This document shows, in pieces, positions 11,723 to 54,143 of a stretch of DNA of 64,000 nt. Origin of the DNA: Rhodothermales bacterium. Lineage in GTDB: Bacteria; Bacteroidota; Rhodothermia; Rhodothermales; Bin80. Positions within the stretch are counted from its first letter, which is position 1. Each line of letters begins with the position of its first letter. The stretch lies in assembly GCA_965116685.1 (NCBI GenBank), contig OZ220707.1, positions 1,811,655 to 1,875,654 of the forward strand. The letters are read 5' to 3'. The notes beneath the pieces are model-generated. The model searched no databases and was not told where the DNA came from. It worked only from the letters and a program-made list of their open reading frames with translations. Made by a program: the position numbers and the translations under genes.

Positions 11723-11736
11723 TTGCAAGGAAGCGC

Positions 11737-14004
11737 TTAATCTATTTTTATCTGCCTCGGAGCTCGCACGAATAGCACATCATGCAACTTTGCATGATTC
11801 GTGAACACCTCCGGCCCTCGCTCTTCAAGTCCTTTCATGTTAAACCCAACCACCGTTAAGTCTGCGTCAGAGGATTTTTCAGAAACCATCCTGCGGAAAG
11901 CTTCAATATTGTCGATTGCCATATACTCAATATTTTTCTCCGAGATCGGCAGCCTTCCTTCACCGATCAACTGGGCAAATTCCTGCCTAGTCCGCTCTAC
12001 CTCCACTCCTGGCAAGGCCGCAAAAACCTGTACCTGCGCCTTCTCCCAATCCGGGTGTCCTAGAAGGATATAGCTCAGAAGAATCATTGTGTTTGCATTG
12101 TCTCTGTCATTCCAGGTCAGCCACACATGGATTGAATCTCTGCTGCCAAAATGCGTCTCACAGTGACGCAGCACCATAAGTGTCATATCCGTGTCTGCTG
12201 CGAACTTGCACTGATCTACCACGCCTTTGACCACATCCATGGAATCCCGTTGTGCAAATTCAAAAAGGATTGAGTTGTTCGACATGCCGGATACTCCAGG
12301 GACCTGAAGTGTCTGCGCCAGCGCTGAGGTGATGGACGGGCTCACAACCGTATCCATGTATACTGCACTGTGCTCCCTTTTTGCAAGTTCCAGTAATCGC
12401 TCTTTGATCCTCTTACTTTCAGAGAACGTGGCGGCAGTTAATCGGCCTTTTATAAAATGGACATACGTCCCGAACCCATATCGGTGGCACAGCCACCGTA
12501 GCATGATCAACGGGCTGCGCCGGTCAAAGGTGCGATCATTCACCATGATCACGCTCGGGCGCCACTCGTCAGCGACCTGATCCGTGCGTCGCTGCTGCAG
12601 ACGAATTTGCATATAGCGGGTCGCTTGCGTAATCGCATTCTGAAATAGCGAAGCCAAATCTCCCTCTCCCCGCTTCCCTATACGCAGCGCCTGGTAGAGT
12701 GCCACCAGAAGCAGAATCGCAAGCGTTGCAAACAATAGACTGATCTGGAACATCAGAAGGAAACAAATGATGGCTCCGAGAAGGCTGATATACCATCGGG
12801 ACCGGAAGCTCGGACGGTAGCTTGGTCGTGCCGCAAAATGCTCCAAGAAACTGATCGCGCAAAGAGACCCATAGGTCACCATAAAAAACATCGAAATCAG
12901 GATTGCAACAAGATTCACATTCCCTACAATGACGATCACCGTCGCCAAAACTCCTGTAATCATCGTCGCATGCCGAGGATCATTGGCCACACCGACCCCA
13001 CGCGACAACCATGCATTCAATCCTTTCCCCGGCAGCGAATTGTCTGCCCCCAAAGCCTGCAGGGTCCGAGGTGCCACCAGAACCGATCCAATTGCACTGC
13101 TCAAGGTCGCACAACACAACCCGATCAGGATGGCAGGCCCCCAAGCAGAAACCTGGGCCATGATCAACTGGTCTTCCGCCATCGCCTCAGGAGAGGCACT
13201 GATATGGAGTTTGAAGACAATCCCGATATAGACGATCATCCCGATTATCGTTGCCCATAACGTTCCCCTTGGCAGAGATTTGCGAGGATTCCGTAAATCC
13301 CCCGACAAGCCTACACCTGCCGTCATACCCGTAAATGCAGGAAATACAATTGCAAAAACGACGATGAACGAGTCAGGACGAGCAATCTTTTCCGTCAGAC
13401 TGACCGCATTCCGATCAAACCCTTCCAAAGGGGACCCCAGAAAAAACAGGAGTAGTGCCCCAAAGAGAGTCGCCGCAACCACGTATAACAGCTTAACCCC
13501 CAGATCCGCCCCCTTTGACAGCACAAGGGCCAACAGCATCACCAATGCAGGGATTGAGACGAGGCGTGAATCAAAACCAACTCCGAACTGATCCGCCAGG
13601 ATCGGCTCCAGCCAGGTGAATGCCTCGGCAAACGCAATCATGTAAAAGGCAACGGAGATTGCCTGGGATAAATACAGACTGATCCCAATCACCCCGCCAA
13701 TCGTTGTTCCGAACGATCGTGAGATGATGAAGTACTCCCCACCACCTTCCACTTTGCGGTTGGTTGCGATTTCTGCGAGCGCCAAGGCCGTTGGAATTGT
13801 CACAAGGTGGCCAAGAAGTATGATCCCCACAACCCCCAAAAGTCCTGTATGAGCCACGGCATAGCCGAAGCGCAGGAACATGATCGCCCCCAGGATTGTG
13901 CTGATTCCCGCAAGAAATACCGGTAATGTCCCAAACCCGTAACCACGATCTGTTGCCTGCATGTCTAATCCTGAATCTTTGTCTCGCCCGCTGAAATAAG
14001 CCAT
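11737..14004 (-). CDS. APC-superfamily permease with SLC12-type C-terminal domain (cation-chloride cotransporter-like)
   Basis: About 12 hydrophobic helices in the first 480 aa (amino-acid-permease-like FGTLPVFLAGISTILGAIMFLRFG), plus a roughly 270-aa soluble C-terminal domain. Confidence 0.7.
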   Translation of the reverse strand: MAYFSGRDKDSGLDMQATDRGYGFGTLPVFLAGISTILGAIMFLRFGYAVAHTGLLGVVGIILLGHLVTIPTALALAEIATNRKVEGGGEYFIISRSFGTTIGGVIGISLYLSQAISVAFYMIAFAEAFTWLEPILADQFGVGFDSRLVSIPALVMLLALVLSKGADLGVKLLYVVAATLFGALLLFFLGSPLEGFDRNAVSLTEKIARPDSFIVVFAIVFPAFTGMTAGVGLSGDLRNPRKSLPRGTLWATIIGMIVYIGIVFKLHISASPEAMAEDQLIMAQVSAWGPAILIGLCCATLSSAIGSVLVAPRTLQALGADNSLPGKGLNAWLSRGVGVANDPRHATMITGVLATVIVIVGNVNLVAILISMFFMVTYGSLCAISFLEHFAARPSYRPSFRSRWYISLLGAIICFLLMFQISLLFATLAILLLVALYQALRIGKRGEGDLASLFQNAITQATRYMQIRLQQRRTDQVADEWRPSVIMVNDRTFDRRSPLIMLRWLCHRYGFGTYVHFIKGRLTAATFSESKRIKERLLELAKREHSAVYMDTVVSPSITSALAQTLQVPGVSGMSNNSILFEFAQRDSMDVVKGVVDQCKFAADTDMTLMVLRHCETHFGSRDSIHVWLTWNDRDNANTMILLSYILLGHPDWEKAQVQVFAALPGVEVERTRQEFAQLIGEGRLPISEKNIEYMAIDNIEAFRRMVSEKSSDADLTVVGFNMKGLEERGPEVFTNHAKLHDVLFVRAPRQIKID

Positions 14005-20466: not shown

Positions 20467-21800
20467 GAATGGGGAATCATATACGTAAGTGACCTGTCCA
20501 TTAGGCGGCCCTCTGCGTATCCATTTCACAGGTCATAGAGGTCGGTAACCCGAACGCCTCTCGCTGTGCAGTTGCCCCAATCCCGGAGGCCAGTATGTTT
20601 GCCGCCGCGTTCAGGTCGGCATGATCCGCATGTCCACAGGACATACACTTGAATGTACTTTGCGTCTTTCGATTCTCTTTATCCCGGTGTCCACATATGT
20701 TACAGTCCTGACTGGTATAAGGGGCAGGGACCTTCATGACCTTCCGGCATTTGTATTCCAGCATTTGATCCAACTGTCCCCATCCGGTTTTCAGGATCTC
20801 TCGGTTCAGTCCAGCCTTCGCGTTGACGTTTGTACCGGGATTCTCTACGGTACCTTTGGCACTGGACGTCATGTTCTGGATATTCAGGTCTTCCAGTACT
20901 GCGGTCGAGGATCGGTTGGCGATCCTCCGGGACGCTTGATGATTTGCATTCGTACGGGTATTGGCAATACTTCGATGAACTTTCTGGATCTTCAGTTTCG
21001 TACGCTTCCTGTGATTGGATCCTTTTTGTTGCCGGGCCAACTGCCGTTGATACCGGTGCAGCTTTGCCGTCTTCCGTTTAATCTCCGGTTGCTGGATGAT
21101 CTCCTGCTCCCCGTCTGAATAGGTTGTAGCAAACTGTGACATACCACTTGCCTGCCAGTTTCTTGACGACCGCCTTGACCGGCTTGCCGTCGGTATACGG
21201 GTTGTTACCACGAATCTGTACGTATCCCAGTTTGGGAATGAGTAGCTTCCCGTCTTTGATCTTAACGGCATCCGGGATCGTGAATGAGGGAGTAGTGCGG
21301 TGTATGGAATGAAACTTCGGTCGTCCATTCCCGTGCTTGAAAAATCCCTGTCAGGCATCTGCCTGGTACTTCAAGGTGTACCGGGTAATCTTATAGCTGT
21401 ATTCGGGCAGCCAGTCCACATGATCTCGCAGTTCCTTGAATCGTTTGCCAAGAGAGAAGAAACTCGTCGATGGGGGCTTCTCTTCAGACTCTTTCGCTTT
21501 GGCGTAGGCTTCGTTCTGCTGTGCCAGCATTGCATTCCAAACGAATCGACAGGCACCTGCCAGTCCCGCCAGTTTCTTTGCCTTGGATTGCGTTCCCGGC
21601 AATAGCCGATAGACGATGCTTCGGTATCGGAAACTAGTTTGCTCTTTTTCGTTCAATCCCTTAACGGGCATGGTATCAATCGAGGTGATATTATGGTAAG
21701 CAATAGGGTGGATGGGTGTCCATCCTATTGTGTCCGTTAGCCCTGAAGCCATGAAAAGGTTGCATGACTTCAGGTTACTCACGTATATAGTTCCCTTTGA
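20467..21800 (-). mobile_element. TnpB-only IS (IS200/IS605-IS1341-like), decayed, with about 28-bp imperfect terminal inverted repeats
   Basis: GAATGGGGAATCATATACGTAAGTGACC (20467-20494) matches the reverse complement of GGTTACTCACGTATATAGTTCCCTTTGA (21773-21800) at 20/28 positions. A subterminal hairpin CAATAGGGTGGATGGGTGTCCATCCTATTG lies at 21701-21730. Confidence 0.7.
20501..21671 (-). pseudogene. tnpB: tnpB (RuvC-like RNA-guided nuclease) pseudogene
   Basis: The N-terminal ORF ends at an in-frame TGA (21351-21353), where the family has W (ADA*QGFFKHGNGRPKFHS). An out-of-frame deletion near 21120 removes the GIDLG RuvC-I segment between VTVCYNL and SDGEQ. The RuvC-II VLEDLNIQNM, zinc finger CNICGH...CMSCGH and RuvC-III HADLNAAANI are retained. 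Confidence 0.75.
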
Positions 21801-22247
21801 ATGCCTACGGTTTACCTCACACGGGAGACACATTTTAACGCGGCTCACCGCTTACACAACCCTGCAAAATCAGACGAGTGGAACTGTTCGGTTTTCGGAC
21901 CCTGCAACAATCCCAACTGGCATGGCCACAACTATAGGCTCCAGATAACTGTTGCAGGCACTCCCGACCCGGATACGGGCTATGTAATTGATCTGGGAGA
22001 CCTGAACCAAGTGATTCAAGATCGTGTTATCCGTCACCTGGATCATAAGAACCTGAACTTGGATGTCCCCTTCCTCAAGGGGATCATGCCATCCACAGAA
22101 AACCTTGTCATTGCGATCTGGGATCGTCTGGCAGACACCTTACCTGCCGGCACCCTCTATCGCGTCCGACTTCATGAAACACCAAAAAATTCAGCAGACT
22201 ACTTTGGCCCGGATGGATCACTCAGATCTGTTAGATCAAACTCTTAG
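21801..22247 (+). CDS. queD: 6-carboxy-5,6,7,8-tetrahydropterin synthase
   Basis: [12 protein letters not shown]...[11 protein letters not shown] motif set of the PTPS/QueD family. Confidence 0.85.
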
Positions 22248-23387: not shown

Positions 23388-23902
23388 CCTTTTGAGGCTA
23401 AAAGTGCTTTCAGTGCTCCACACCAGTGATCAGCATCCCGGGTGATGGTCACAACGTTGATCGTTTGAAAACGTGGAAACAACTCTATCATAATATCGGG
23501 AATTTTACTCCATTCCTCTTGGCGGATTAGTGTTTCAAGCGTATCTGCCGCCTTCCTGCTCCAGCGCCAGTCATTGCGAAGGGCTTCCGCACGCTTCCAG
23601 TAATTACGCTCATCCCACACGTCTGCACTCCCTTCAATTGTCGCATAGATCCCGCGTAGCGAAAAGACAAATAGTGCTGCCATGTCCTTTGCCTCATCAT
23701 CAAAGCGGTCTTTTTCTGCCAAAAGGCGAAGAAGTTCTGCACAGGTGCGCCTGTGAGCATTGCGCTCTTTGGCGGGTGTATTACCGGTGCGTATAATCCG
23801 TGCCATATAGTTCAGGATCTGATTAAGTCTACCCAACACATGGGGAATAAGCCCGATGGGTTGGGCGATAAGGGTGGGTCGGACTTCATGGGTCTTATCC
23901 AT
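23384..23902 (-). CDS. Hypothetical protein (172 aa), no recognisable domain
   Basis: Clean ORF with an ATG start. Its TGA overlaps the ATG of the downstream yqgE-like gene (ATGA), which suggests translational coupling. Confidence 0.4.
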   Translation of the reverse strand: MDKTHEVRPTLIAQPIGLIPHVLGRLNQILNYMARIIRTGNTPAKERNAHRRTCAELLRLLAEKDRFDDEAKDMAALFVFSLRGIYATIEGSADVWDERNYWKRAEALRNDWRWSRKAADTLETLIRQEEWSKIPDIMIELFPRFQTINVVTITRDADHWCGALKALLASKG

Positions 23903-24033
23903 CCAACATGATACTTCTGCCTGTATTTATGTTCTGCAGTCTCACAGATGATGGGCAACCGAAAAACTACACATTCTCCGATAAACCACCTTCCGGCATA
24001 TAATCGCCGTCGCTGAAAATATTGAGACCCTGT

Positions 24034-24659
24034 CTACCAACTTTCAGGTTTGTAGATCTTCGTTTGGGGGATTGGATTCGGCAACTGTGACTTCCTAAGC
24101 GCACCGCCTCTGATGCGTGCCAAAAAATCTGCATGAATTTTGAGTTGTCGTGATGTTTTCTTCTTTCCAGGTGTAATCAGTCCTATACGAATTGCTGGAT
24201 GCTGCTCCTTTGTCAGCCGCATTGTCTCGGCTATATCACTGTCATTCGTTACAACCACGGCACACTCATACTTACCAAGCCATGCATCATTGAGTAAATG
24301 CACCGCTAAATTGACATCTGAACCCTTTTCTTTGGTGTCTAGCACGCTGACTATCTTTGGGGTTCCCTTCGGGTTCGCAAGTGGTCGGCGAATTTTGTGA
24401 GTCAAGAAGGATCCGAGGTGAACCTCTACATTGGGCTTGTAATTCTGCAAGGCGTTGAGATATGTGTTTTGTCTCTGTGATTGAGAGGGATCTCTCCGCG
24501 AGTCTGCCACTTTGACAGTAAAGAATTTAACCAGTTCAATGTTATGGTGTGGCTGAAGTATGCTCTTGAAAAGCAATGGGAGATCTAGCCACTTGTAGGA
24601 TGTGCCTCTTAAGATCCGTAATAGAGATTAAACCCATCAACATATACGATCGTCCGCAT
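24034..24659 (-). pseudogene. NYN-domain (LabA/PIN-like RNase) gene with one frame break after codon 16
   Basis: ATG 24659 gives MRTIVYVDGFNLYYGS then TAA. Shifting one nt at about 24611 continues as LRGTSYKWLDLPLLFKSIL... into the 180-aa ORF, which carries EKGSDVNLAVHLLNDAW and VVVTNDSDIAE NYN motifs. Confidence 0.65.
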
Positions 24660-24668
24660 AATCACCTC

Positions 24669-24697
24669 AAAAAAGCTAGGGCCTCCGAAGAGGCCCT
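24669..24697 (-). terminator. Rho-independent terminator (minus strand)
   Basis: Minus strand reads AGGGCCUC-UUCG-GAGGCCCU followed by AGCUUUUUU. It is preceded by a second UUCG-looped hairpin (24701-24722). It ends 10 nt upstream of the NYN ATG. Confidence 0.6.
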
Positions 24698-25397
24698 GCG
24701 CCCTACACCCGAAGACGTAGGGGGGGGTAAGGCGAGAGATTTCACCAGAATCAGGTGCTGCACCCGCCGACATCATTAACTTAGCAATTTCGTCCTTGTT
24801 CCCAAAATACTACTTTGGTGACATAATTCCCTTTCCTTTCAAGGCTTGACTCCCGAAAACAGAAAGATGGTCGGTGGGGGGTTCCGGCACCATTTCCAGT
24901 AGTTGACATGACAAATCATGATGCTGGGCTCGGTTTTGCTATGATCACGGTTGGGAGAGGAGTGGAACTGAAGATCAATGATCCACAACAAATGCTAGAG
25001 CCAAGTGATGGATTGTGCTACCCCTCAAGCCCAGGTCGCCGACCCGGACTGAAGCCAGCCGAGCGAATCATCCCAACCCCCTGCGATTTGCGAGACCGGC
25101 GGACACATGTTCCTCTGGGCGTCCCAGGACCGGATCACCGAGGGGCTACATGCTCGAGCGCCGGGGCGGCAGATACGTGTGCTGCCTCATTTGGAAACCA
25201 GCGAGCGGAGGCCCGATCCAGCCCATCCTCTACTGGCGAAAAGGCACGCCGGAGTTCAGGGAGGCGAAGGGATTCATGACCGCCTCCAGGGCGGAGGCGG
25301 ACCGGGAAGACGGGCGCCCGAGCTTCTTCTTCTCGATGATCGGGCGCGTGACCAAAGGGCCGGTGCAGCTGCGGGATCCCTATACATTGGATCTCAC

Positions 25398-25593
25398 TTA
25401 ATGGGAATTATATACATGTGTACCCAGACTCATGCATCCATTTCACGGGTTCACGAGGTCTCCAATGAGAACGCCTCTCGCCGTGCAGTCGCCCCAATCC
25501 CGGAGGCCAATGGCATATTCGACCATACCCCAATATACGGAAATTCAGCGGATTGTTTGCAATGGGTACACACATATATAATTCCCCATTTAA
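25398..25593 (-). mobile_element. MITE-like internal-deletion derivative of the TnpB IS, keeping the tnpB 3-prime end / right-end region
   Basis: Inverted repeats TTAATGGGAATTATATACATGTGTACCC (25398-25425) and GGGTACACACATATATAATTCCCCATTTAA (25564-25593) both resemble the IRs of the IS at 20467/21773. Region 25435-25510 matches 20517-20595, the last 19 or so tnpB codons (LASGIGATARREAFSLETS*). Confidence 0.6.
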
Positions 25594-25665: not shown

Positions 25666-25869
25666 ATGAAAGATCACCAGAACGTCACCGAAAACTGCCC
25701 GATTTTGGGCGTCCGCGTCCGCAAGGAGATGAAGGAGCACCTGGCCTATCTTGGCCAGCTGGATAAGCGATTGATGTCCTACATCACGAGGGAGGCGACC
25801 TACCAGGGCCTTCGGGATGTAGAGGTGCAGTTTCGGGAGCGAGGCCTGCTAAAGGAAGCCGCACAATGA
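25666..25869 (+). CDS. Small ribbon-helix-helix (CopG/Arc-like) protein, putative
   Basis: 67 aa. ILGVRVRKEMKEHLAYLGQ fits a beta-strand followed by a helix, as in RHH folds. ATG start. GC-rich like the neighbouring island DNA. Confidence 0.4.
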   Translation: MKDHQNVTENCPILGVRVRKEMKEHLAYLGQLDKRLMSYITREATYQGLRDVEVQFRERGLLKEAAQ

Positions 25870-25900
25870 TCGCACCCGCGACAAAAAAAGCCCCCCTGAC

Positions 25901-27921
25901 TAGCCTGAATTTCCAACAGACAACTTAAAGTGACATTATGTGGGTATTTAGGCCTTACAGATACGATTTGATCCCATTATTGTCACTTTTTTTTGTGTTT
26001 ATATCTCGCTAACCAATACATTTGACAATTTCTGTCATTGCCATAAATACCCGGGATTTGACAGTTATTATCATTTTTCTCGATTTAATCTCTTCTTGTT
26101 TCATATTTATCGTTGCGTGTATTATATTAGTGCATGATACTTAATAACGATTTTTTATGACGTTTACCAACCAAGAACTCGAAAATCTCTTCCTCCAGCC
26201 CCAATCCCCGCACCAACTCCAGTATGAGGCCCTGCGTGCACGATTCGTAGATCGAAAGCCTTGGGCAGAAATTGCCAAACAGTTTCGCCTCAACCCGGGC
26301 ACACTCCGTAACCTGGCTTCAAAGGTGCGTAAATCTGGAACCCTTGATCTGTTTGACTCTCCCATCAACCAAAAACGATCCCAGCGAGATCAGCGAATCC
26401 TTGCACTGCGTTTGGAAGAGCAGCTCTCCAATACAGAAATTTCGGAGCGTTTGGCAGCGGAAGGAATCAAAGCGGGAACTACCACCATTGGCTTGGTCCT
26501 CAAGAACGCAGGAGTTTCAAAGCTTCCCCGACGAATGGCACGTGCAGTGCCACAGGTGTTGAAGGCCCCCGAAGCCGATGTCCGCCGGTTCTTGCCCACC
26601 TCCGCGAAGTGGCAGACCCGTTTTGGCGGACTATTCCTCTTTGCTCGGGATCTGCAACAGGCCCGACTTGATCGGGTCCTGGCCGAGTGGCCCACCAGCA
26701 AGAAACTGCCTGCTCCGACCATGATCCGTGCACTGCTGGCCCTCAAGCTCTGGGGGATTGGACGGCCCTATCATGTGATGCCGGATATTCTGGATCCGGG
26801 AAGTGCCCTGTTTGCGGGACTCAATGTGATGCCGAAAAAATCAACGCTTACTGAGTATAGTACCCGCATTGATGCCTCACATTTGCGTCCGCTGATGGAT
26901 GTCTGGCATGGCGTTGCACAGGAACTGTTGCCAGCTCCAGAAACCTCCTTTGACCTGGACTTCCATATCATCCCCTATCATGGAGATGAAGCATTGATGC
27001 AGAAACATTTCGTCTCCAAACGGAGCCGACGGCAACGAGGAATCTTGGCCATCGTTGCTCGGCAAGCGAGTCAGCGTGCGCTCATCTACGGGGATGCGAG
27101 AATTACCAAAGCCAATCAAAATGATGCCATTCTCGAATTCGTGGACCTCTGGGAACAACGCGCCGGGAAGCCTCCCAAGGAATTAGTCTTTGACAGTCGC
27201 TTTACCACCTATGCGAATCTGAACGAACTCAATCAACGCAATATCTACTTTTTAACCCTGCGGCGGCGTGCACCTTCCATTGTGTACCAACTCAATCAAC
27301 GCCCGTCCCAGGATTGGAAAACCATCCAACTTCAAAATATCGGGCGCAAGTACTCCACCCCACGAATCCTGGATGAATCCATTACCGTGCGAAACTACTC
27401 GAAGAACCTGCGCCAGATCGCAATCAAAGGACTCGGACACGATAAACCAACCCTTCTGATCACCAATCGGATGGAAGAACATCCCACAACGCTCGTGGAC
27501 CGGTATGCCCGGCGCATGCTCATCGAAAATGCCATTGAGGACGCAATTAATTTCTTCCATATGGACGCGCTCTCAAGTACCGTGCCATTACGGATTGACT
27601 TGGATTTACAATTGACGCTCATCGCCAGTACCCTCTACCAAGTCTTAGCACAGCGCTTGGGAGCCCGGTATGAAACCGCGAAAAGCCGAACCATCTTCAA
27701 TAAATTCGTCCATGCCCCCGCCACCGTCATCACCCACAACGATCAAATCGTGGTACGACTCACCCGACGCGCACACAACACAGAACTGCGGGCAGCAGGC
27801 TATGTTGGATCCCAAGGACCGATCTCCTGGATGCAGAACCGAAACCTAATCCTTGAATACGTCTAATCGCTCACTTGCTTATCCGATTGTCATCAAAAAA
27901 CGTGGTTGGAAATTCAGGCTA
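25901..27921 (+). mobile_element. IS4-superfamily-like insertion sequence (about 2.0 kb)
   Basis: Perfect 17-bp terminal inverted repeat: TAGCCTGAATTTCCAAC (25901-25917) and GTTGGAAATTCAGGCTA (27905-27921). An AT-rich left subterminal region carries several TGACA/TGTCA motifs. A single transposase ORF lies inside. Confidence 0.75.
26157..27866 (+). CDS. DDE transposase (IS4/IS1634-like)
   Basis: N-terminal HTH-like segments, DFHIIPYHGD and VFDSRFTTY acidic-residue blocks, and the C-terminal YARRMLIENAIED signature (Y-x2-R-x3-E) typical of IS4-type transposases. Confidence 0.8.
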   Translation: MTFTNQELENLFLQPQSPHQLQYEALRARFVDRKPWAEIAKQFRLNPGTLRNLASKVRKSGTLDLFDSPINQKRSQRDQRILALRLEEQLSNTEISERLAAEGIKAGTTTIGLVLKNAGVSKLPRRMARAVPQVLKAPEADVRRFLPTSAKWQTRFGGLFLFARDLQQARLDRVLAEWPTSKKLPAPTMIRALLALKLWGIGRPYHVMPDILDPGSALFAGLNVMPKKSTLTEYSTRIDASHLRPLMDVWHGVAQELLPAPETSFDLDFHIIPYHGDEALMQKHFVSKRSRRQRGILAIVARQASQRALIYGDARITKANQNDAILEFVDLWEQRAGKPPKELVFDSRFTTYANLNELNQRNIYFLTLRRRAPSIVYQLNQRPSQDWKTIQLQNIGRKYSTPRILDESITVRNYSKNLRQIAIKGLGHDKPTLLITNRMEEHPTTLVDRYARRMLIENAIEDAINFFHMDALSSTVPLRIDLDLQLTLIASTLYQVLAQRLGARYETAKSRTIFNKFVHAPATVITHNDQIVVRLTRRAHNTELRAAGYVGSQGPISWMQNRNLILEYV

Positions 27922-27999
27922 GGGAAGTTGACAGGGGCCTGGGACACGCAAAGTGCGTGAGGAATGACCTTCACATCCCCGAGGGGGAAGGATGTTCCC

Positions 28000-29127
28000 A
28001 TGCGCCGCGCCCCAGACCGAGGGGCCATGCCGACGCATAAGCAAATCCAGGCCCGCAACCGCCTCATCATCGCCAACCTCGGGGGCGGCATGACACAGAA
28101 AGAGGCCGAAGCCAAATACGGACTTACCGCAGAGCGCATCCGCCAGATCGCGAGGCAGCACGGCGTCCGGGCAAAGAGCGGAATCGGAGAGGCAAAGCGG
28201 AAGCTCAACCAGGCGATCATCGAAGACTTGAAAGCCGGCATGACACAGAAAGAGGCCGGAGCCAAATATGACCTTGCCCCGGAGCAAATCTACCAGATCG
28301 CGAGGCAGCACGGCGTCCGGGCAAAGAGCGGAATCGGAGAGGCAAAGCGGAAGCGCAACCAGGCGATCATCGAAGACTTGAAAGCCGGCATGACACAGAA
28401 AGAGATCGGAGCCAAATACAGACTTACCGCAGAGCGCATCCGCCAGATCACGAAACAGCACGGCATCACAAAGTACCTGACTGGAGAGGCAAAGCGGAAG
28501 CGCAACCAGGCGATCATCAAAGACTTGAAAGCCGGCATGACGGTGAAGCAAGCCGGAGCCAAATACGGACTTCACCCCGGGAGCATCAGCCAGATCGCGA
28601 AACAGAACGGCGTCGGAGGAATAGAGGCAAGGCGGAAGCGCAACCAGGCGATCATCAAAGACTTGAAAGCCGGCATGACGGTGAAGCAAGCCGGAGCCAA
28701 ATACGGACTTCACACTGGGAGCATCAGCCAGATCGCGAGAACGAACGGCGTTCAGGCATACAAGGCTAAAACGCGCCTGATTGGAGAGGCGCTGCGGAAG
28801 CGCAACCAGACGGTCATCGAAGACTTGAAAGCCGGCATGACACAGAAAGAGGCCGGAGCCAAATACGGGCGTACCCCAGAACACATCAACCTGATCGCGA
28901 GGCAGCACGGCATCCGGACATATAAAGCTAAAACGCACCAGATCAGAGAGGCGCTGCGGAAGCGCAACCAAGCGATTATCACCGACCTGAAAGCCGGCAT
29001 GGCACGGAAAGAGGCGGAGCCAAATACGACCTCGACCGCTCGACCATCAGCCAGATCGCGATACAGAACGGCGTTGGAGCAATGGAGGCAAAGCGGAAGC
29101 GCAACCAGGCGATTATCAAAGACCTGA
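28000..29127 (+). CDS. Tandem-HTH array protein (frame-1 part; the repeat register is lost after a 1-nt deletion at about 29015)
   Basis: Start at ATG 28000, preceded by GGGGGAAGGA. Repeated module: RKRNQAIIxDLKAGMTQKEAGAKYGLxxxxIxQIARQHGV. After 29015 the same repeat continues in frame 3 (ORF 29082-29471). Confidence 0.6.
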   Translation: MRRAPDRGAMPTHKQIQARNRLIIANLGGGMTQKEAEAKYGLTAERIRQIARQHGVRAKSGIGEAKRKLNQAIIEDLKAGMTQKEAGAKYDLAPEQIYQIARQHGVRAKSGIGEAKRKRNQAIIEDLKAGMTQKEIGAKYRLTAERIRQITKQHGITKYLTGEAKRKRNQAIIKDLKAGMTVKQAGAKYGLHPGSISQIAKQNGVGGIEARRKRNQAIIKDLKAGMTVKQAGAKYGLHTGSISQIARTNGVQAYKAKTRLIGEALRKRNQTVIEDLKAGMTQKEAGAKYGRTPEHINLIARQHGIRTYKAKTHQIREALRKRNQAIITDLKAGMARKEAEPNTTSTARPSARSRYRTALEQWRQSGSATRRLSKT

Positions 29128-29225
29128 AAGCGGGCATGACACAGAAAGAGGCCGGAGCCAAATACGACCTCGACCGCTCGACCATCAGCCAGATCGCGAC
29201 ACAGCACGGCTTCCATACAAAGAGA
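28051..29225 (+). repeat. Eight coding tandem repeats of 138-162 nt (46-54 aa HTH modules)
   Basis: Modules begin at ARNRLIIANLGGGM, then RKLNQAIIEDLKAGM, then six copies starting RKRNQ(A/T)(I/V)IxDLKAGM. Linker lengths vary (GVRAKSGIGEAK, GVGGIEAR, GVQAYKAKTRLIGEAL). Confidence 0.8.
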
Positions 29226-29254
29226 GAGAAAGCCAAATACCGCCACGTGATTGA

Positions 29255-29474
29255 CCGCCCATCGCAGAGACCTACCGGCAAAGCGCCTTCTTCCGCGCAA
29301 AGCGGGAAGGGATCTACGGCGGCACCTGTCCGAGTTGCGGTGGCAAAGATCACGGGCCCGGCAACCCCACGGACCGATTCTGGATCTGGCACCGAGACGG
29401 CGACCGACCGCAGGACGTCTATGGCTACCGGAAATGCTCCCCGGGAAATCGGGAGCATGAAGCCATCCTGAAGG
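29255..29474 (+). pseudogene. Primase-type zinc-ribbon segment in frame 2 without its own start codon
   Basis: IAETYRQSAFFRAKREGIYGGTCPSCGGKDHGPGNPTDRFWIWHRDGDRPQDVYGYRKCSPGN resembles C-P-x-C-G-G-K-D...DRF...C zinc ribbons of primase-helicases. There is no ATG/GTG/TTG in this frame after the stop at 29252. It is probably joined to the HTH array by a 1-nt indel in a C-run. Confidence 0.45.
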
Positions 29475-29923
29475 CCCTGGGGCTGTGGGATCATTCCGCC
29501 GCGCGCGGATTTCGGAGGCGGCGCCCCCCAAGCAGGACCGAAGCAACCTGGTCAAGCGCCACACGGAACAGGAAGCAGCACTGGAATGCAACCACCAGAA
29601 AGAAGCCGATCCAATACCCGCACCTGCAGAGCAGCCTGCCGCGGAGCCACCGCCCTCACGCGTGTTACCTCATATCTGAACTTCCCCCCGATCCGGCGTC
29701 AATGGGGTGGCAGATCGAGTTTTGTTATATAACTGGCCATTTTGTCCGGGGATGGACATCCTCCCATTCTGTGAACAGATCTCCGTGATCGGGGCCGGGT
29801 TTTGGGGCCAAAGGACGGGTTGGATCCTCCAAAGGACAAAAAGATGAATGGCCATTTTTCGTTTAGGTGTGGGAACCAGGGGGCCAGTGAGACCATAGAT
29901 CGTGCTACCCTTCAACGAACCCA

Positions 29924-31585
29924 TTACCTCAATCGACCAAGCCAGGCTTTTAGCTCTGGACGACCTCTTCGATTTGCAAGGATCAGATAGGTCGCGGCAA
30001 AAAGGGCTGTGACGGTGATCCCACTCCATATTGGACTCCAATTTTGAGTGAAAGACCAAAAAGCAAAAGAGGGAATTAGTGCAATCATCACAATCAGTTT
30101 CATTTCCCCTATCGCTCGCCAGGGGATAAATGCCGTCCCTAATCGGCACTTCAATGCCCGCCCAAGAAATAACCATTCAACCCACGCCGCGACAGCACTA
30201 CCCGCTGCCAGCCCAACCGCACCAAAGTACAGCGTTGATGAGCCCGCCCCTGTGACCTGCGACACCGGTAACTGATCAAGTGCAAACATTGCAGGGATTG
30301 CCACCACCAATGCAATGATGGCGCGGGCCAGCGCCATGCGTGCCGGCGTGCGTGTATCACCGAGAGCCCAGAATCCGTTCTGTAACAAGCGGCTGCTGAT
30401 TGTAGCCAAAAGCCCAAGACTGTATGTGGCCAGAATGAAATAGGTGAGCCAATTATCATCAATTCCGAACAAGCCTCCGCGATAAATCGCTCCAATGATT
30501 ACATAGCCCAATGCCATGTACCCCAGAGCTGTGGGAACAGCCAGAAACAGACCCTGCCGGAGTCCTGCACGAATCCGCTCCGCCATACGGGGAAGGCTGC
30601 CGGTTCCAATTCGCGTGAGCTCCGGTAACTCGGCCGCTGCAACCGATAGACCAAAAAGTGAAATCGGAAGGATATAGAGGACCTGTGCATACCCGATACT
30701 CGCGACAGCCCCCTCAACCAAAAGCGTTGCGAGCAGGATATCCACATATGCTGAGAGCTGAGCAACGCCTCGACCCGCCAATGCGGGCCCCACGGCGGCG
30801 AATGCTTGACGCACACCGTCCACATGGGTAGAGAGACTCAGACGGAACCCTTTCATCACCATCGCAACCGACGGCAACTGAACCAGAAACTGCATCAAGC
30901 CGCCAATCCCTCCGCCAATAAAAACCGCAGTCAGGAGTCGGGTGAGGGTCTCTGGTAATATAGAATCTCCATTCTCTCCCGGAGTAAACCCAATCTGGCT
31001 TCCAACGCCCAGGAGCGCACCGATAATGGTCACATTCCATAATATCGGTGCAAAGTAGGGCATGAGAAATCGCCGGTGACTATTCAGGACTCCCAGCGCC
31101 CAGGAGGACAGGACCAGGATACCTGCCATTGGAAACGCAAGCCGAACCATGTCAACCGCCAGAAGAAGCCGGTCCACCTCCCGCAATCCGGCGGCCACCT
31201 CTGCGGCATCTCCAACAAACCCTCGCATGAGTATGGAACAGATGGGATGGGCCAGCCAAATTCCCAAAAGCACACCCGCGCAGACCACTGCGGTCAGTAA
31301 ACCCAAAATGCTGCCAGCGAACCGCCCCGCAGCCTCCGGCCTTCCTTCCTCAATCATCTTGCTGTATACAGGGATAAACGCTGCCGACATCGTACCTTCG
31401 CCAAGCAGGTTCTGTAGAGCGTTCGGTGCCTGGAATGCGGCTCTCAACACATCCGCATGTGCTCCACTGCCAAAGTAGCGGGCCATGAGGCTCCATCGAA
31501 TCAAACCCAATACACGACTCGAAAGAATCCCCAGTGCCACAATAGACGCGCGGTTTCCCACCGGGGGTTTCACCTCATCCGTCAT
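29924..31585 (-). CDS. murJ: Lipid II flippase MurJ/MviN
   Basis: LGILSSRVLGLIRWSLMARYFGSG N-terminal signature, about 14 TM helices, MOP-superfamily pattern. ATG 31585 preferred over 31624 and 31681. Confidence 0.85.
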   Translation of the reverse strand: MTDEVKPPVGNRASIVALGILSSRVLGLIRWSLMARYFGSGAHADVLRAAFQAPNALQNLLGEGTMSAAFIPVYSKMIEEGRPEAAGRFAGSILGLLTAVVCAGVLLGIWLAHPICSILMRGFVGDAAEVAAGLREVDRLLLAVDMVRLAFPMAGILVLSSWALGVLNSHRRFLMPYFAPILWNVTIIGALLGVGSQIGFTPGENGDSILPETLTRLLTAVFIGGGIGGLMQFLVQLPSVAMVMKGFRLSLSTHVDGVRQAFAAVGPALAGRGVAQLSAYVDILLATLLVEGAVASIGYAQVLYILPISLFGLSVAAAELPELTRIGTGSLPRMAERIRAGLRQGLFLAVPTALGYMALGYVIIGAIYRGGLFGIDDNWLTYFILATYSLGLLATISSRLLQNGFWALGDTRTPARMALARAIIALVVAIPAMFALDQLPVSQVTGAGSSTLYFGAVGLAAGSAVAAWVEWLFLGRALKCRLGTAFIPWRAIGEMKLIVMIALIPSFAFWSFTQNWSPIWSGITVTALFAATYLILANRRGRPELKAWLGRLR

Positions 31586-31638
31586 CTTGCCCCTGTGTTT
31601 GTGAACCAGTCGTATCTTGCCCATATTCCGCCAAATCC

Positions 31639-32220
31639 ATGATCGAATACATTGAAGGGATCCTGAGCAGTAAAGGGCCAACCCATGCAGTCATTGATGT
31701 GCAGGGAATTGGATACCGCATTTTCATTCCGATGTCTACCTCTGATAAACTGCCTGATACCGGTAAAAAGGTACGTCTGCTTACACATCATTATACCCGG
31801 GAAGACCGGGAGCAGTTATTTGGGTTCGTTTCTTCCGGTGAACGGGCAATCTTTGAATTGTTTATTGGTGTCTCTGGAATCGGTCCAAAGATCGCCATTG
31901 CAGCTCTTTCAACTCTGACTCCAGAGGAACTGGTAAAATACATTACCCTGAGACAGCCGGCCATGCTGCAACGCATCAACGGGGTCGGTCGCAAAACTGC
32001 TGAGCGTCTGGTGGTAGATCTGTTTGATCGCATCCGTGAACTGGATCTTGCACAGGTAGACGTCTCCGGGGCAACCAGTGCCCGGGCGGATGCACTCGCC
32101 GCTCTGGAAACCCTTGGGCTTTCCCGTGCGAAGGCCGAACAACTGCTACGTAAAGTCATGCGGTCTCACCCTGAAGTCAATACAGCTGAAGAGTTTTTGC
32201 AACTAGCTCTTGGCCAATAG
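31639..32220 (+). CDS. ruvA: Holliday junction branch-migration protein RuvA
   Basis: MIEYIEGIL...VIDVQGIGYRIFIP OB-fold start, and HhH motifs GVSGIGPKIAIAAL and INGVGRKTAERL. Confidence 0.9.
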   Translation: MIEYIEGILSSKGPTHAVIDVQGIGYRIFIPMSTSDKLPDTGKKVRLLTHHYTREDREQLFGFVSSGERAIFELFIGVSGIGPKIAIAALSTLTPEELVKYITLRQPAMLQRINGVGRKTAERLVVDLFDRIRELDLAQVDVSGATSARADALAALETLGLSRAKAEQLLRKVMRSHPEVNTAEEFLQLALGQ

Positions 32221-39548: not shown

Positions 39549-39851
39549 TCAGTCAATTTCACTGAGATCGTACCAGTCTATCTCCCGCTCACCAATACCG
39601 TCCTCTCCGGGTGCTCGCTCGATGAGAGTCACAAGAGTTGAACCGAAAATGTCGAAACCCATGAGCCGGTCCTGGACGCGCACTGCACCGACATATGTGG
39701 TGCCAGCCCAGACGTCAAAATAGGAGAACGCGTCGCGGTCGCGGGTGGTAGACACCCAGAGACGGTTCTGACCATCAAACCTGAATGCTGGCTTGAGGAG
39801 CCACTCCTTGGGCTCTCCTCGAAACTCCGCTGCAATGACATGTATCTCCGA
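39549..39851 (-). pseudogene. C-terminal fragment of a 6-bladed-beta-propeller-type lipoprotein gene split by the ISL3-bounded unit
   Basis: The open frame SEIHVIAAEFRGEPKEWLLKPAFRFDGQNRLWVSTTRDRDAFSYFDVWAGTTYVGAVRV...DWYDLSEID* begins exactly at the IS boundary and has no start codon. It continues the frame of 54137-54279. Confidence 0.65.
39844..39850. repeat. Target-site duplication, left copy (ATCTCCG)
   Basis: Identical 7-mer at 54137-54143, immediately outside the opposite ISL3 end. With the next base it is 8 bp with one mismatch (ATCTCCGA vs ATCTCCGG). Confidence 0.7.
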
Positions 39852-41122
39852 GATTCTACCGCGATTCCTATGGAATGATTAAATTTGGGCTCACTCAATA
39901 CAGAGGTATCCAATGGAAAGGGATTTCGTCACAGTGATGCGCTACAGCTTAGGATTAGGGCACGACTGGAAGATTGACAAGATGCTGGTGGACGAGCGGG
40001 AGCAGTAGATTGATATCTACATTTCGCATTCGGGAGGCACGTTGTTTTGCCCCGAGACGGGAGAGTCCGGTACACTCTATGATCATCGTGAGGAACGGAC
40101 TTGGCGCCACTTGGATTTGTTGGAATTCAAGTGTTTTATCCATTGTCGGGTTCCGCGGGTAGATGCGGGGGTGAAGACGATTAAGACGCCTTGGGCGGGT
40201 GCCTCAGATCGGTTCACGCATGCGTTTGAGCGCTGGACGATTGACTTGCTGTAAGCGACGAAGAATCAAACAAAGACCGCAGAGCTTCTTCGTTGTGGGT
40301 TTGACATCATCAATCGGATCATGCATCGCAGTGTATCCCGTGGAGAAGAGCGACGATCGCTGGACGGGATTGTGCATTTGAGTGTGGATGAGAAGGCGTT
40401 TCAGCGCGGGCATACGTATGCCACCATTGTCAGTGATACGAAGCGTGGTGTGGTGCTTGATGTCGGTGAAGGTCGGGACAAAGTTCGTGCAAAAGCGATG
40501 TTAAGCCGCCTTTGGTGGGATAAAAAGGCACAAATAAAGACCCTCACCACCGATATGTGGAAGGCCTACATTGCCCTGGCCAAGGAGGACCTCCCCGACG
40601 CAGAACTCATTCATGATCGTTTTCATTTGGTCAAGTATCTCAATGAGGGGATTGATCAAGTACGTCGCAGAGAGGTGAAGCAACATGAGGAACTCAAACA
40701 CAGTCGTTATGCGCTCTTGAAAAATGAACAGAATCGAACCCAAAAACAAGACGAGATTTTCAAAGTCATCCAGGAATCCAACTTGCAGGTCAGCGTCCCC
40801 TGGCGATTGCGAGAGGAATTCAAGGCGATCTTTGAATGCAGATCATTGTCCGATGCAAAGCAGTACTTCCAACTTTGGTTTGAGAGTGTGAAAGAAGCAG
40901 CCGTGAAGGAGATCATAAAAGTGGCGGAGATGTTTGAACGACATCTCACAGGCGTGTGTAATGCCCTTTGCCACGAACAGTCCAACGCCAGAGCATGCAA
41001 TGGGAAGATCCAGGAGGTCAAAACGATCGGTAGAAGATATAGAAAATTTGAAAACTTCCGATCGGCGATTCTTTTTTTCTGCGGCGATTTAGACCTCCAT
41101 TCACAATATTCACGGTAGAACC
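39852..41122 (+). mobile_element. ISL3-family insertion sequence, full-length copy 1
   Basis: IRL GATTCTACCGCGATTCC... matches the reverse complement of IRR ...ATTCACGGTAGAACC (GGTTCTACCGTGAAT). A single transposase frame lies inside. Confidence 0.8.
39937..41118 (+). pseudogene. ISL3 transposase with two in-frame stop codons
   Basis: One frame reads MRYSLGLGHDWKIDKMLVDEREQ*IDIYISHSGGTLFCPETGESGTLYDHREERTWRHLD...WTIDLL*ATKNQ...DEKAFQRGHTYATIVSD... The stops are TAG at 40006-40008 and TAA at 40252-40254. Confidence 0.8.
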
Positions 41123-41363
41123 GAATTAATTTCTAAAATCGCGGCTATTTTGGGGTACCGCCGCCCCCCCAACTAGCCGCCCCTAACGGCTGTCAGTTTT
41201 TCAAAAAAAACCTTGAACCTATGGAGAAAATCGTGTCTTCAAGAAACCGGAATGGGGGGAAGTTCAGTTATGGAATCAGGGAAGAATGCAATCTAAGGGG
41301 GCAATCATAAACAAATTTCCCATCTTATTCCGTTTGGCTCTTGCACTTGCAATGTTCAAGTCA

Positions 41364-44300
41364 CTAATACTGGAGCGATCCCCGCACATTCACGCCGATG
41401 TCTCCCAGTGAAGCTGTACGGCTGTGTGCCAGACCAAAGACCGAGAAGGTCAGCCGCTCCCATGGATGAAGTTCACCGCCCAACCGGTACATCCTGCCCT
41501 GTGACAGCTGAGTCACTCCCATGATTGACCGGGCGGTGCCATCTTTCCACGGAATCCCATACCCCAACTCCAATTCGGTCCGGTGAACCCCTGTCCCCAT
41601 CGGCGCCGCATCCCGGATCGTCTGCTGACCATACAGCGACATCCCCTGTCCCAGACCCCATGAAGGTCGTACCCGCATCATTAATCCTTCCGACCGGTTT
41701 CCCACCTGCACGAATCCCGAGATCCCCCACTCGCTGAACCCCGCCGCCGTATGCATCACCAGTCCCTGCGCGTGCACATCTGCCTTCAAGCGCCACGCCG
41801 GGTACGCTATCCGCATCCCTCCGCCAAACTCCAAGCCCACGCCCGTCTCCGCACTCCCGCCATCACTGCGCACATTCGCCTCCACATAGGGACGAAGCAC
41901 ATTGTTGATCCGCGCATTTGCTTCCACCCCTGCCCGAACCCGGTACACCTCCGCCGTCACCGCATGCGCCTCAATCTCTGCATCCGTCACCAGCACATCT
42001 CCATGATAGTTCAGCCCAATGGTGCTGTTTGATACCAGTGTTCCCCGAACCCCCATCGCACCAAACCTTGATGTCAGATCGCCGTCCAGCTCCAGCACCT
42101 CGGCCTGTCCGCGTCCGGCCCCGGCGCTCAACCATACCTCCCATCCTGCACGCGCCACCGACACATACGGATACACGCCCGTCAATCCTGCAGTGATCTC
42201 TCCCGACTCCTGCGCCGCCGCAAACGATCCCTCGCCCTGACTGTGGGACAGTAGAACCCCTGCCAGCCAGCCTCCCTTCCACCGGTAGTCTGCCCCCAGC
42301 ATCCCGGTGGTCACCTCGCCATCCAGCGTTAACCCGTCATCCTCCCGACCATTGAATTGACGGAATGCTCCCCGGCCCCATACACTGAACGACCCGCTGT
42401 ACGAGGTCGCCGACATGCGGCAGCCGCCCAACAACTCTCCCAGGGACGGATCCCAGGAAGAAGCCGAATACCAGAGCCGGGACATCTCTGCGCGCGTTGC
42501 CGCCCCGCATGCTGTACCATCCGCTCCGCGGAACCGATCCCCCAGTGCCTCCACCACCTGGGTCGCCGACGTCCGAACAAACCGTGCCGTATACGCCTCC
42601 AAGGCTTCCTGGCTTACCGTGGTTGCCGCCTGGATCGTTGCCACGCCCACCGCCTTCGCAATCTCTGCATTCTCCGAAGACTCCAGATGCACCGTGAAGG
42701 TCTCCTCCTGCCAGTCCAGCCCGTCCTTCAGGAGCGGGACCGCGATCATGGCATCCAACGTCCCCGGTGCCAGCGTCACGACTCCCGAAGCGGCTTCATA
42801 GTCTTCCCCCGCCTTCGCCGTTCCATCCTGCGTCCGGTATGCAGCCGAGATCATTTGACGCTGCGGATGGGACAGTGAGACTTGGAAACGGACCATTCCC
42901 TCTTCTTCCTGTACCAGTGCATCCTCCACCCGAAGAATTGCCGTCCCCCCATCATTGTCCAGGATCGTGCCCGTCCCCGTTCCACGCGCAATGATTGCGT
43001 TCTGCGGTTTCAATAAGGTCACCGCAAACGTCTCCGTTGACTCCGGGATCTCATCATCGGTGATCTCAATCTCAATCACCCCCTGGGTGGCACCCGGATC
43101 AAAGATCACAATCCCACGCGATGCCGTGTAGTCCAGACCCGACTCTGCCGTGCCATCCGTGCTGGCATACTGCACGGTTACCACCACATCCGTGGGACGG
43201 CTGAGTTCGATGGGCAGTTGAATGGCACCTGCATCTTCCAATTCCCGCTTGTCGTAGATCGTGATCGTCAGCGGCCCCGGACGCTCGTCATTGTCGGTAA
43301 TCGTCACCGTGACCGGTGCCTCCTCTCCGTTGTAGCCGCCGCCAGATGCTGCGAGATTTAGCTCTATCGTATCCGTCTCATAATCCTCATCCTCCGCCGC
43401 CGTTAAGGTCACCGTTTGGGCCTGATTCCAGTTGGAGGTCGTAAACGTAAGAGGAGTGTCACTCAGGCTCAGATCCGTTCCCGCGTGGCCGCTGAAGGTT
43501 ACCGTCACCGGGCCCGAGGGTTGGGCCAGCAAACGGACCTCAAGTGGATGCGTGCCTCCTTCTTCCATGGTCACGGCCTCCTCAACCACGAGACCCGCTG
43601 CATCATTTTCCGCAATCGTCACCGTGATCGTTATTGGTATCAGTTCGTCGTAGCCTCCGCCCGACGCAGTCAACAACAGGATCCCTGAATCAGTCTCAAA
43701 ATCATCATCCTCCGTCGCCGTTAATGTCATCGTCTTGGGAGTCTGCCAATCCGCGGTTGTAAACGTGAGCGAGAACCGATCCAGCATTAGGTCCGGGTTC
43801 GTATTCCTTGTAATCGTTACCACCACCGGTCCGGAAGGCGATCGGGCAAGCGCAATCTTCAACTCCTCCGAACCTCCCTCGGGAACGGTTACCCGATCCC
43901 GGACATCAATCCCCGGTGCATCATTGTCCGTGATCGTTACCGGAATGTAGGCGATTTCCTCGTAGCCACCCCCATTTGCCGTTACGGTCAACGTCTCAAA
44001 ATTCGAACTAAAATCCGTGTCATCTTCCCCCGCCGTCAACGTCACCGACTTCGCCATATCCCAGTCCGCCGGACTAAACGTCAGATGCGGAGGACTATAG
44101 GTCAGCAGTGATCCTGTCGGCAAAGTCATCATCACCGTCACTTCACTCAATGGCTTCGAGGTTAATGTAATCTGAAACGTTTGGGTGCCCCCCTCCACGA
44201 CCGATACCGATGGAGGCGTATTAATCCCTGCCTCATCGTCGTCGATGATGGTCACCTTGACCAATGATTGCTCTCCATTGGCCAGCTCAGAGGGTAGGGG

Positions 44301-51338: not shown

Positions 51339-51427
51339 CGCAGTGTATCCCGTGGAGAAGAGCGACGATCGCTGGACGGGATTGCGCATTTGAGTGTGGA
51401 TGAGAAGGCGTTTCAGCTCGGGCATAT
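51333..51427 (+). mobile_element. ISL3 copy 2, internal fragment (equivalent to 40321-40413 of copy 1); 5-prime third of the IS absent
   Basis: ATGCATCGCAGTGTATCCCGTGGAGAAGAGCGACGATCGCTGGACGGGATTG(C/T)GCATTTGAGTGTGGATGAGAAGGCGTTTCAG... shows 2 mismatches to copy 1. The antisense strand supplies the first 29-30 codons of the listed 3353-aa ORF. Confidence 0.8.
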
Positions 51428-54136: not shown

Positions 54137-54143
54137 ATCTCCG
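54137..54143. repeat. Target-site duplication, right copy (ATCTCCG)
   Basis: Identical to 39844-39850, directly abutting the ISL3 IRR. Confidence 0.7.

Follow-up and report, generated by a model that had tools for sequence, protein, structure and literature searches.

Tandem helix-turn-helix modules and a primase-type zinc ribbon stub in a Rhodothermales chromosome: a probable decaying remnant of a mobile-element or prophage module

Several helix-turn-helix (HTH) units that together read a long asymmetric DNA site are present in Drosophila Pipsqueak (four psq repeats), AraC/MarA (double HTH), and Myb (R1-R3). In homing endonucleases, NUMOD1-type HTH modules reportedly accompany HNH or GIY-YIG domains, a description attributed to Sitbon and Pietrokovski; the module number of the known enzymes ranges from one to a few, in contrast to the seven to ten of stand-alone arrays. 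The C-terminal HTH series of Tn7 TnsD likewise combines several HTH units in one chain, with a long asymmetric site (PMC10293859). Here, a gene composed of eight tandem HTH modules (hereafter, the array gene) and the cysteine motif encoded downstream of it were analyzed in a 64,000-nucleotide stretch of contig OZ220707.1 of a Rhodothermales bacterium (hereafter, the window, to which coordinates refer unless stated otherwise). At this locus, a small mobile-element or prophage module of the Rhodothermales chromosome has probably been decaying and has left a poly-HTH gene and the 5′ stub of a phage-type primase gene.

The module of the array gene shares with sigma-70 region 4 (PF04545) and Mor (PF08765) the three-helix HTH and the signature R-N...I...G-x-(S/T)...A...(Y/F)-G-L...I...I, whereas the array has neither sigma regions 2/3 nor the Mor dimerisation domain and holds eight copies instead of one; the encoded protein is neither a sigma factor nor a Mor protein. 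The likeness to homing endonuclease arms is that relatives of the module stand in tandem beside HNH, Endonuclease VII, GIY-YIG+NUMOD3, and HNH_repeat domains, or in a gene overlapping an HNH gene, and that PHROG HNH-endonuclease families match the array. Unlike these enzymes, however, the gene in the window has no nuclease domain: none, HNH or GIY-YIG included, was found in the translations scanned across 27964-29698, and NUMOD1 (PF07453) was not among the Pfam matches listed for the array (E ≤ 1, best 25 families). In comparison with TnsD, Pipsqueak, AraC, and Myb, the arrays show no sequence-level family membership (faint Pfam TnsD matches and one HTH_psq match were obtained on arrays), a much higher copy number, and recent duplication in situ. 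No description of stand-alone poly-HTH arrays was found in the literature, and the closest parallels are offered by homing endonucleases, with their HTH modules, and by TnsD, with its multiple HTH domains.

Modules of the array gene and their fold

Three-frame translation of 27964-29700 revealed eight tandem modules of 46-54 aa each (28033-29261), with the consensus EAKRKRNQAIIxDLKAGMTQKEAGAKYGLxxxxIxQIARQHGV. The corresponding features, including the longest intact open reading frame (ORF), are as follows (HMM, hidden Markov model).

27964..29127, plus strand: longest intact ORF of the array gene, comprising M1-M6 and the first half of M7, then an out-of-frame tail
28033-28188, plus strand: module M1, frame 1, module HMM
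28189-28338, plus strand: module M2, frame 1, module HMM
28339-28485, plus strand: module M3, frame 1, module HMM
28486-28623, plus strand: module M4, frame 1, module HMM
28624-28785, plus strand: module M5, frame 1, module HMM
28786-28947, plus strand: module M6, frame 1, module HMM
28948-29084, plus strand: module M7, split, first half in frame 1 and second half in frame 3
29085-29261, plus strand: module M8 and linker, frame 3, the frame being open as far as 29471

The module HMM, which was made from seven of the modules and run on the six-frame translation of the 64-kb window, detected each of the eight modules with an independent E-value of 1e-27 to 1e-31 and no further module copy in that translation. 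Tandem Repeats Finder (TRF) gave a period of 150, 7.5 copies, 78% matches, and a score of 967. Thus, the eight tandem modules noted earlier in a reading made from the sequence alone (the sequence-only reading) are present. The repeat units are 138-162 bp long, and the core DNA identity between modules is uneven (65-92%), with M4 and M5 forming the closest pair (92-96%; 96% according to TRF). It had been held that the modules are clearly diverged and not recently amplified; every module is indeed distinguishable, with at least 8% DNA difference, but the divergence is not uniform. The array bears a history of recent duplication, and the sister locus described below has only three modules against its eight.

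The ORF encodes 387 aa from the ATG at 27964 or 375 aa from the ATG at 28000 (P0001 in our protein set). It is interrupted in M7 by a 1-nt deletion after 29015 (GAGGC-GGAGCC versus GAGGCCGGAGCC in all other modules). The array protein with its frame repaired is strongly basic (pI 10.6; 90 K+R versus 36 D+E). When the repaired 511-aa protein was compared with 5.8 billion proteins in a word-indexed search, the ORF of the window itself was the sole match.

Among Pfam families, the repaired array matched HTH_28 (PF13518; 1e-30, 105.9 bits, six stretches), Sigma70_r4 (PF04545; 8.5e-24, 83.3 bits), and HTH_23 (PF13384; 1.4e-21, 76 bits), the gathering score being exceeded for HTH_28 and HTH_23; one module alone passed that of Sigma70_r4 (27.3 bits against 24.1). 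The best PHROG families were Mor-like late transcriptional activators (PHROG 836/532), in which the match is confined to the C-terminal HTH (positions 83-120 of 133), and Mor itself was absent among the best 25 Pfam families listed for the array. The 433-aa repaired array carries HTH-type Pfam families only, with no regions 2/3 of a sigma-70 family sigma factor. Sequence matches in the Protein Data Bank (PDB) were marginal and concerned sigma region 4 chains.

The structure of the 375-aa ORF was predicted with AlphaFold2 from a 150-sequence alignment, with a mean predicted local distance difference test score (pLDDT) of 87 and blocks of 92-96. Every module was modeled as a three-helix HTH fold, with helices of approximately 16, 8, and 10 residues and a pLDDT above 90; the predicted TM-score (pTM) of 0.47 indicates confident domains whose mutual arrangement is undefined. 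Comparison of the whole-array model with the PDB using Foldseek gave no match at E < 0.1, as is expected because the array is a flexible string of small domains. Consequently, the sigma-70 region 4/Mor-like identity proposed in the sequence-only reading agrees with Pfam, PHROG, and AlphaFold2 alike, and the modules are three-helix HTH domains of this type. The product of the poly-HTH gene would be a strongly basic chain of eight such modules arranged as beads on a string. By analogy with the tandem HTH arms of homing endonucleases, TnsD, Psq, and AraC/MarA, each module would read its own short DNA subsite, and the intact array would recognise one long asymmetric site.

In the modules of the window, the ratio of non-synonymous to synonymous substitutions (dN/dS) was 1.39 over the turn and recognition helix versus 0.54 elsewhere, a contrast that is suggestive only, being derived from 28 non-independent module pairs.

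Primase-type zinc ribbon and decay of the locus

Two features were delimited downstream of the modules.

29288..29449, plus strand: putative remnant of the N-terminal zinc ribbon of a phage-type DNA primase, frame 2, tblastn in both directions
29485..29679, plus strand: ORF of 64 aa, frame 1, earlier described as an acidic, proline-rich tail; nothing indicates that it is coding

The first of them contains the motif CPSCGG...DRFWIW...YRKC and lies in frame 2, which is open over 29255-29786 and encodes ...FFRAKREGIYGGTCPSCGGKDHGPGNPTDRFWIWHRDGDRPQDVYGYRKCSPGNREHEAILKAL... The first knuckle (CPSC) is located at 29327-29338, and the second, at 29426-29437, now reads YRKC. No match to the ribbon was found in Pfam, PHROG, or the PDB, nor to the ribbon segment in the word-indexed search of 5.8 billion proteins, and the AlphaFold2 model of the ribbon, made without an alignment, was uninformative (pLDDT 42.6). 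In a tblastn comparison with 50,697 phage genomes, the ribbon matched the N-terminus of annotated DNA primases, namely, residues 19-55 of the primase of a Vibrio phage family (ungapped, 37 residues, 43-46% identity, E = 4e-3) and residues 19-68 of the primase of T4-like Acinetobacter phages. That the Vibrio phage protein is a true primase is shown by its match to PHROG 47 (6.7e-57). In the reverse tblastn, in which both full primases were compared with the whole window, the best match was 29288-29449 (E = 8.8e-6 and 0.006), in agreement with the earlier assignment of the cysteine motif to the primase type.

The elements shared with the N-terminal zinc domain of phage DNA primases (T4 gp61-like "DNA primase subunit"; PHROG 47) are FFR-x-x-REG-x-x-x-G-x-CP-x-CG ... 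RF-x-I ... C. In the alignment with the two phage primase N-termini, the first CPxC knuckle is kept, whereas the second, CxNC in the phages, is YRKC instead of CxxC in the window; furthermore, the ribbon has no start codon and is not followed by a TOPRIM or other catalytic domain. With tblastn of the two full primases, only residues 19-68 matched, and nothing of the catalytic part was found in or beside 29450-29925. The zinc ribbon of P4-alpha primase-helicases, to which the motif had been likened, is a different case: Prim_Zn_Ribbon (PF08273) gave no Pfam match at E ≤ 10 with the ribbon segment of the window or of the sister locus. Judged from these alignments, the motif appears to be a degenerate stub of a primase-type zinc ribbon outside the P4-alpha Pfam family, the ribbon being all that would be left of the 5′ part of the primase gene. 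A degenerate HNH motif (C-x2-C...DH...N...C) was considered and rejected, on account of its ill-fitting spacings and because the two independent database matches both concern primase N-termini.

Of the three frame breaks postulated earlier, the 1-nt deletion in M7 and the break between array and ribbon are present, while the third (~29480) is unneeded, frame 2 being open beyond it. The 64-aa tail ORF exists, but its coding nature has found no backing: it has no family match in Pfam, and the region is missing from the sister locus. As a separate observation, the catalytic region of the Vibrio phage primase (residues 195-254) had a weak tblastn match at 39609-39806 on the minus strand (E = 0.036), outside the listed ORFs of at least 150 aa; it may be part of a TOPRIM-type gene or a chance match.

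A scan of 185,579 species genomes revealed one related locus, designated L001, in a Rhodothermales metagenome-assembled genome (CBDBMQ01). L001 is syntenic with the window, with an identity of about 95%. In the 13.4 kb of aligned flanks, just five 1-nt indels were found, all of them intergenic or at gene ends; because the flanking genes are free of internal indels, random indel error is negligible in both assemblies. In contrast, the stretch 23800-25254 alone holds 13 indels between the window and L001. The L001 array comprises three modules versus eight in the window; one nucleotide is missing from its module 1, a 4-nt indel follows its last module, and the locus is truncated at window position 29407. 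The break between array and ribbon is identical in both genomes and is therefore old, whereas the remaining lesions are independent. In the ribbon frame, 2 synonymous and 9 non-synonymous changes separate the two genomes, and no frame is favored; thus, the ribbon changes neutrally between them.

With the deletion in M7, the frame change before the ribbon, and a differently frameshifted orthologue, the locus is not an intact protein-coding gene, and the poly-HTH system is broken in the window genome. The clean flanks, the differing lesions, the neutral ribbon, an insertion sequence (IS) upstream, and the broken neighboring NYN-domain gene (see the last section) point to an island in decay and not to an undamaged gene for 560 aa that contains sequencing errors. 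The array gene probably no longer performs its original function, and the module number would shift through unequal recombination between the ~150-bp repeats. The locus is a clean example of a change in repeat number (8 versus 3) together with gene decay between genomes that are ~95% identical.

Several points weigh against this interpretation and against the recognition properties proposed for the array. The frameshifts and the 8-versus-3 module count depend on assembly quality inferred from the flanks; the surviving 387-aa ORF, with six and a half modules, could still be made; and the dN/dS of 0.54 in the scaffold reflects past, not necessarily present, constraint. The contrast between the two ratios comes from non-independent pairs without a statistical test, and DNA binding with one subsite per module is deduced from family membership. 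The similarity to primases is short (37-53 residues, 30-43% identity, E = 4e-3 in the phage collection) and has no profile match.

The relation between array and ribbon can be read in two ways, of which two adjacent genes, the second having lost its start, are favored. An ancestral true fusion, in which the eight-HTH array was in frame with a primase (ribbon plus a now lost catalytic domain) and tethered it to a long specific site before becoming a pseudogene, is unlikely, although a number of features speak for it. The array frame is stop-free for 70 codons after M8 and runs into the ribbon region, no ATG, GTG, or TTG occurs between the frame-2 stop (29252-29254) and the ribbon, the join from frame 3 to frame 2 near 29258 is seamless (...KAKYRHVIDRP|IAETYRQSAFFRAKREG...), and the break between them is common to L001. 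On the other hand, an array followed by a primase-type ribbon was found in none of the 150 top relatives (see the next section), many of the closest pure arrays end within ~15 residues of the last module, and no catalytic remnant of a primase lies nearby. Moreover, the ribbon starts ~18 residues from the N-terminus in both phage primases, and the opening of frame 2 lies just 11 codons ahead of the corresponding FFR motif, as would be expected of a distinct gene in which the start ATG had mutated to the ATC at 29261.

A reading in which the gene still yields its shortened product (375-387 aa, with six modules intact), possibly driven by a promoter that points out of the IS, and in which this product still functions in DNA-binding regulation, is rather improbable. 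In its favor, the ORF 27964-29127 is intact, a TTGACA hexamer is situated just past the end of the IS, and many relatives presumably function with only 3-6 modules. However, the L001 copy is frameshifted in module 1, the surrounding island decays in both genomes, and a promoter scan of 27800-29950 detected no promoter-like site. Candidate target repeats were not found nearby either: the search for iterated DNA motifs suggested in the sequence-only reading, performed over the 64-kb window, gave chance two-copy matches only.

It is highly improbable that the breaks are sequencing or assembly errors that conceal a single uninterrupted product of ~560 aa comprising array, zinc ribbon, and acidic tail, as had been suggested earlier. 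One nucleotide does repair each break, and the break in M7 falls in a CC dinucleotide; nevertheless, two independent assemblies without an indel in any flanking gene over 13.4 kb share the break between array and ribbon, the ribbon is short of one Zn ligand and evolves neutrally, the tail ORF is unsupported, and the third break is unnecessary. Programmed frameshifting was also rejected, as the breaks differ between the two genomes, save one in a neutrally evolving region. Least probable of all is that the eight-module length is an artefact of a mis-expanded or mis-joined repeat: despite repeats of 138-162 bp with 65-92% identity, only three modules in the sister assembly, and the many relatives on short contigs, a hint that assemblies tend to break at such arrays, every module can be told from the others by at least 8% of its DNA, the locus lies within a 3.76-Mb contig, and many unrelated assemblies contain arrays of 7-10 modules.

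Poly-HTH class and variation among modules

The window copy is a pseudogene of little importance in itself, but it points to a large class of proteins that consist entirely or for the most part of tandem sigma-70 region 4/Mor-like HTH modules. When the module profile was compared with 1.84 billion representative proteins (clusters at 50% identity) using HMMER, 511 clusters were obtained at E ≤ 1e-3 and 48 at E ≤ 1e-10. Among the 150 best relatives, at least two modules per protein were found in 143 and at least four in 46 (our own domain count), so the earlier statement that such HTH domains normally occur once per protein was too strong. Most relatives carry 2-10 modules; examples are P0002 (379 aa, 7 modules), P0006 (629 aa, 10 modules), and P0009 (418 aa, 8 modules). 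Several "extra" regions of relatives proved to be more divergent modules. The names given to these proteins in databases, such as "sigma subunit" or "Pin-like recombinase," are automatic.

The poly-HTH class was defined here by at least three tandem modules that match the profile and are separated by linkers of less than ~20 aa. The window array, with eight modules, belongs to this large, widespread, uncharacterised class. The architecture, which had gone unrecognised in the sequence-only reading, thus recurs in at least 511 clusters, and the proposed search for proteins with three or more modules and for their genomic context yielded hundreds of array clusters, some of them linked to nucleases and often in prophage-like surroundings.

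Class members occur alone, in multi-gene runs, or fused or adjacent to the nuclease domains of homing endonucleases, often in prophage-like contexts. The domains fused to arrays include HNH, Endonuclease VII, GIY-YIG+NUMOD3, a homing-endonuclease-associated repeat, Mom, and ROS/MucR; the nuclease-linked relatives are represented by P0034 and P0107 (HNH), P0059 (Endonuclease_7), P0145 (GIY-YIG+NUMOD3), and P0046 (HNH_repeat). In locus L009 (9099-11257), an HNH gene overlaps the start of an 8-module array gene (P0153) by 4 nt, and its 301-aa product has a cysteine-rich N-terminus, two HTH modules, and an HNH domain. Locus L015 (1313-4508) contains three consecutive overlapping multi-HTH array genes (370, 328, and 367 aa) inside a one-directional cluster of small unknown genes. 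Two further arrays (L016 and L018) lie in prophage-like surroundings that include a cI-type repressor, an excisionase, and an integrase, while another (L008) lies among IS elements and a methyltransferase. The HNH/array pair of L009, which is flanked by housekeeping genes, may be a homing-type element composed of two genes.

Foldseek comparison with predicted viral structures (BFVD) gave 16 phage proteins at E ≤ 1e-3 (200-417 columns), nearly all of them uncharacterised. The module alignment found no relative among the viral contigs scanned and, among metagenome contigs, only one distant two-module locus, in a prophage-like region.

Variability was computed over 33 proteins with at least four modules. 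Within-protein entropy was lowest at the scaffold positions R6, N7, I10, G17, I34, I37, and G42, and highest at profile columns 30-33 and 35-36, which correspond to the start of the third (recognition) helix; within arrays, the scaffold R-N, I, G, G-L, I..I, G is nearly invariant. The variability of the recognition helix suggests one DNA subsite per module. Module identity was 49% within proteins versus 29% between proteins; since modules are more alike within a protein, the arrays grow by local duplication. The basic stretch before helix 1 is conserved in the modules; such a stretch may form an arm that lies in the minor groove, like those of homeodomains and Hin.

The association with homing endonucleases and prophages, the expansion in situ, and the variable DNA-reading positions make these proteins candidates for modular recognition of long sites. 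As a speculative proposal, poly-HTH arrays would be a natural, rapidly evolving modular DNA-recognition system, in which each ~50-aa module reads a short subsite through a few hypervariable residues where the recognition helix begins, and in which phages and mobile elements duplicate and diversify modules for long-site specificity, guiding nucleases, and here perhaps a primase, to unique targets. If so, such arrays would be the HTH equivalent of the arrays formed by zinc fingers or TALEs, would bear on the choice of targets by selfish elements, and might be a source of engineerable DNA-binding scaffolds.

Elements surrounding the locus

Two features were identified immediately upstream of the array gene.

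25666..25869, plus strand: ORF of 67 aa, function unassigned, which directly preceded the array gene until the IS inserted between them
25900..27922, plus strand: IS of 2023 bp, bounded by perfect terminal inverted repeats of 18 bp and encoding a DDE transposase of 569 aa (26157-27866)

The IS ends 42 bp upstream of the ATG at 27964, and its site is empty in L001. Its transposase showed weak matches to DDE_Tnp_1 and DDE_Tnp_1_4; the element is single-copy within the window and has no clear target-site duplication. The 67-aa ORF is conserved in L001 (9686-9889) with 7 aa changes. The NYN-domain gene (24034-24776, minus strand) is frameshifted in the window, where its N-terminal MRTIVYVDGFNLYYGS is split off into a separate ORF, and intact in L001 (8288-8920, 210 aa).

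Between these genes, the segment 25255-25583 comprises ~330 bp in the window versus ~94 bp in L001; the extra DNA includes a 24-nt inverted repeat (25403-25426/25563-25586, 92% complementary) and may be a small insertion resembling a miniature inverted-repeat transposable element (MITE). The region 24750-25500 is GC-rich (0.55-0.61 versus ~0.51), with no convincing ORF and no Rfam match; Rfam gave no match anywhere in the window.

Beyond the array locus, L001 contains at 10680-13306 a duplicated murJ fragment with the start of ruvA (corresponding to window 30667-31733), an inserted 367-aa gene, and a complete murJ, an arrangement due either to a genuine rearrangement or to a chimeric assembly. 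A repeat of ~114 nt (75-80% identity), found at 41011-41125 and 54025-54137 of the window and, at the rearrangement junction, at 11746-11861 of L001, may be a dispersed intergenic repeat.

Farther upstream, at 20472-21790, the window carries an IS605-family TnpB element that is missing from L001, its frame being split into overlapping ORFs (21351-21848, HTH_OrfB_IS605; 20501-21358, OrfB_IS605 with a Cas12f-like TNB domain). Downstream, an uninterrupted ORF of 3353 aa occupies 41364-51425 on the minus strand.

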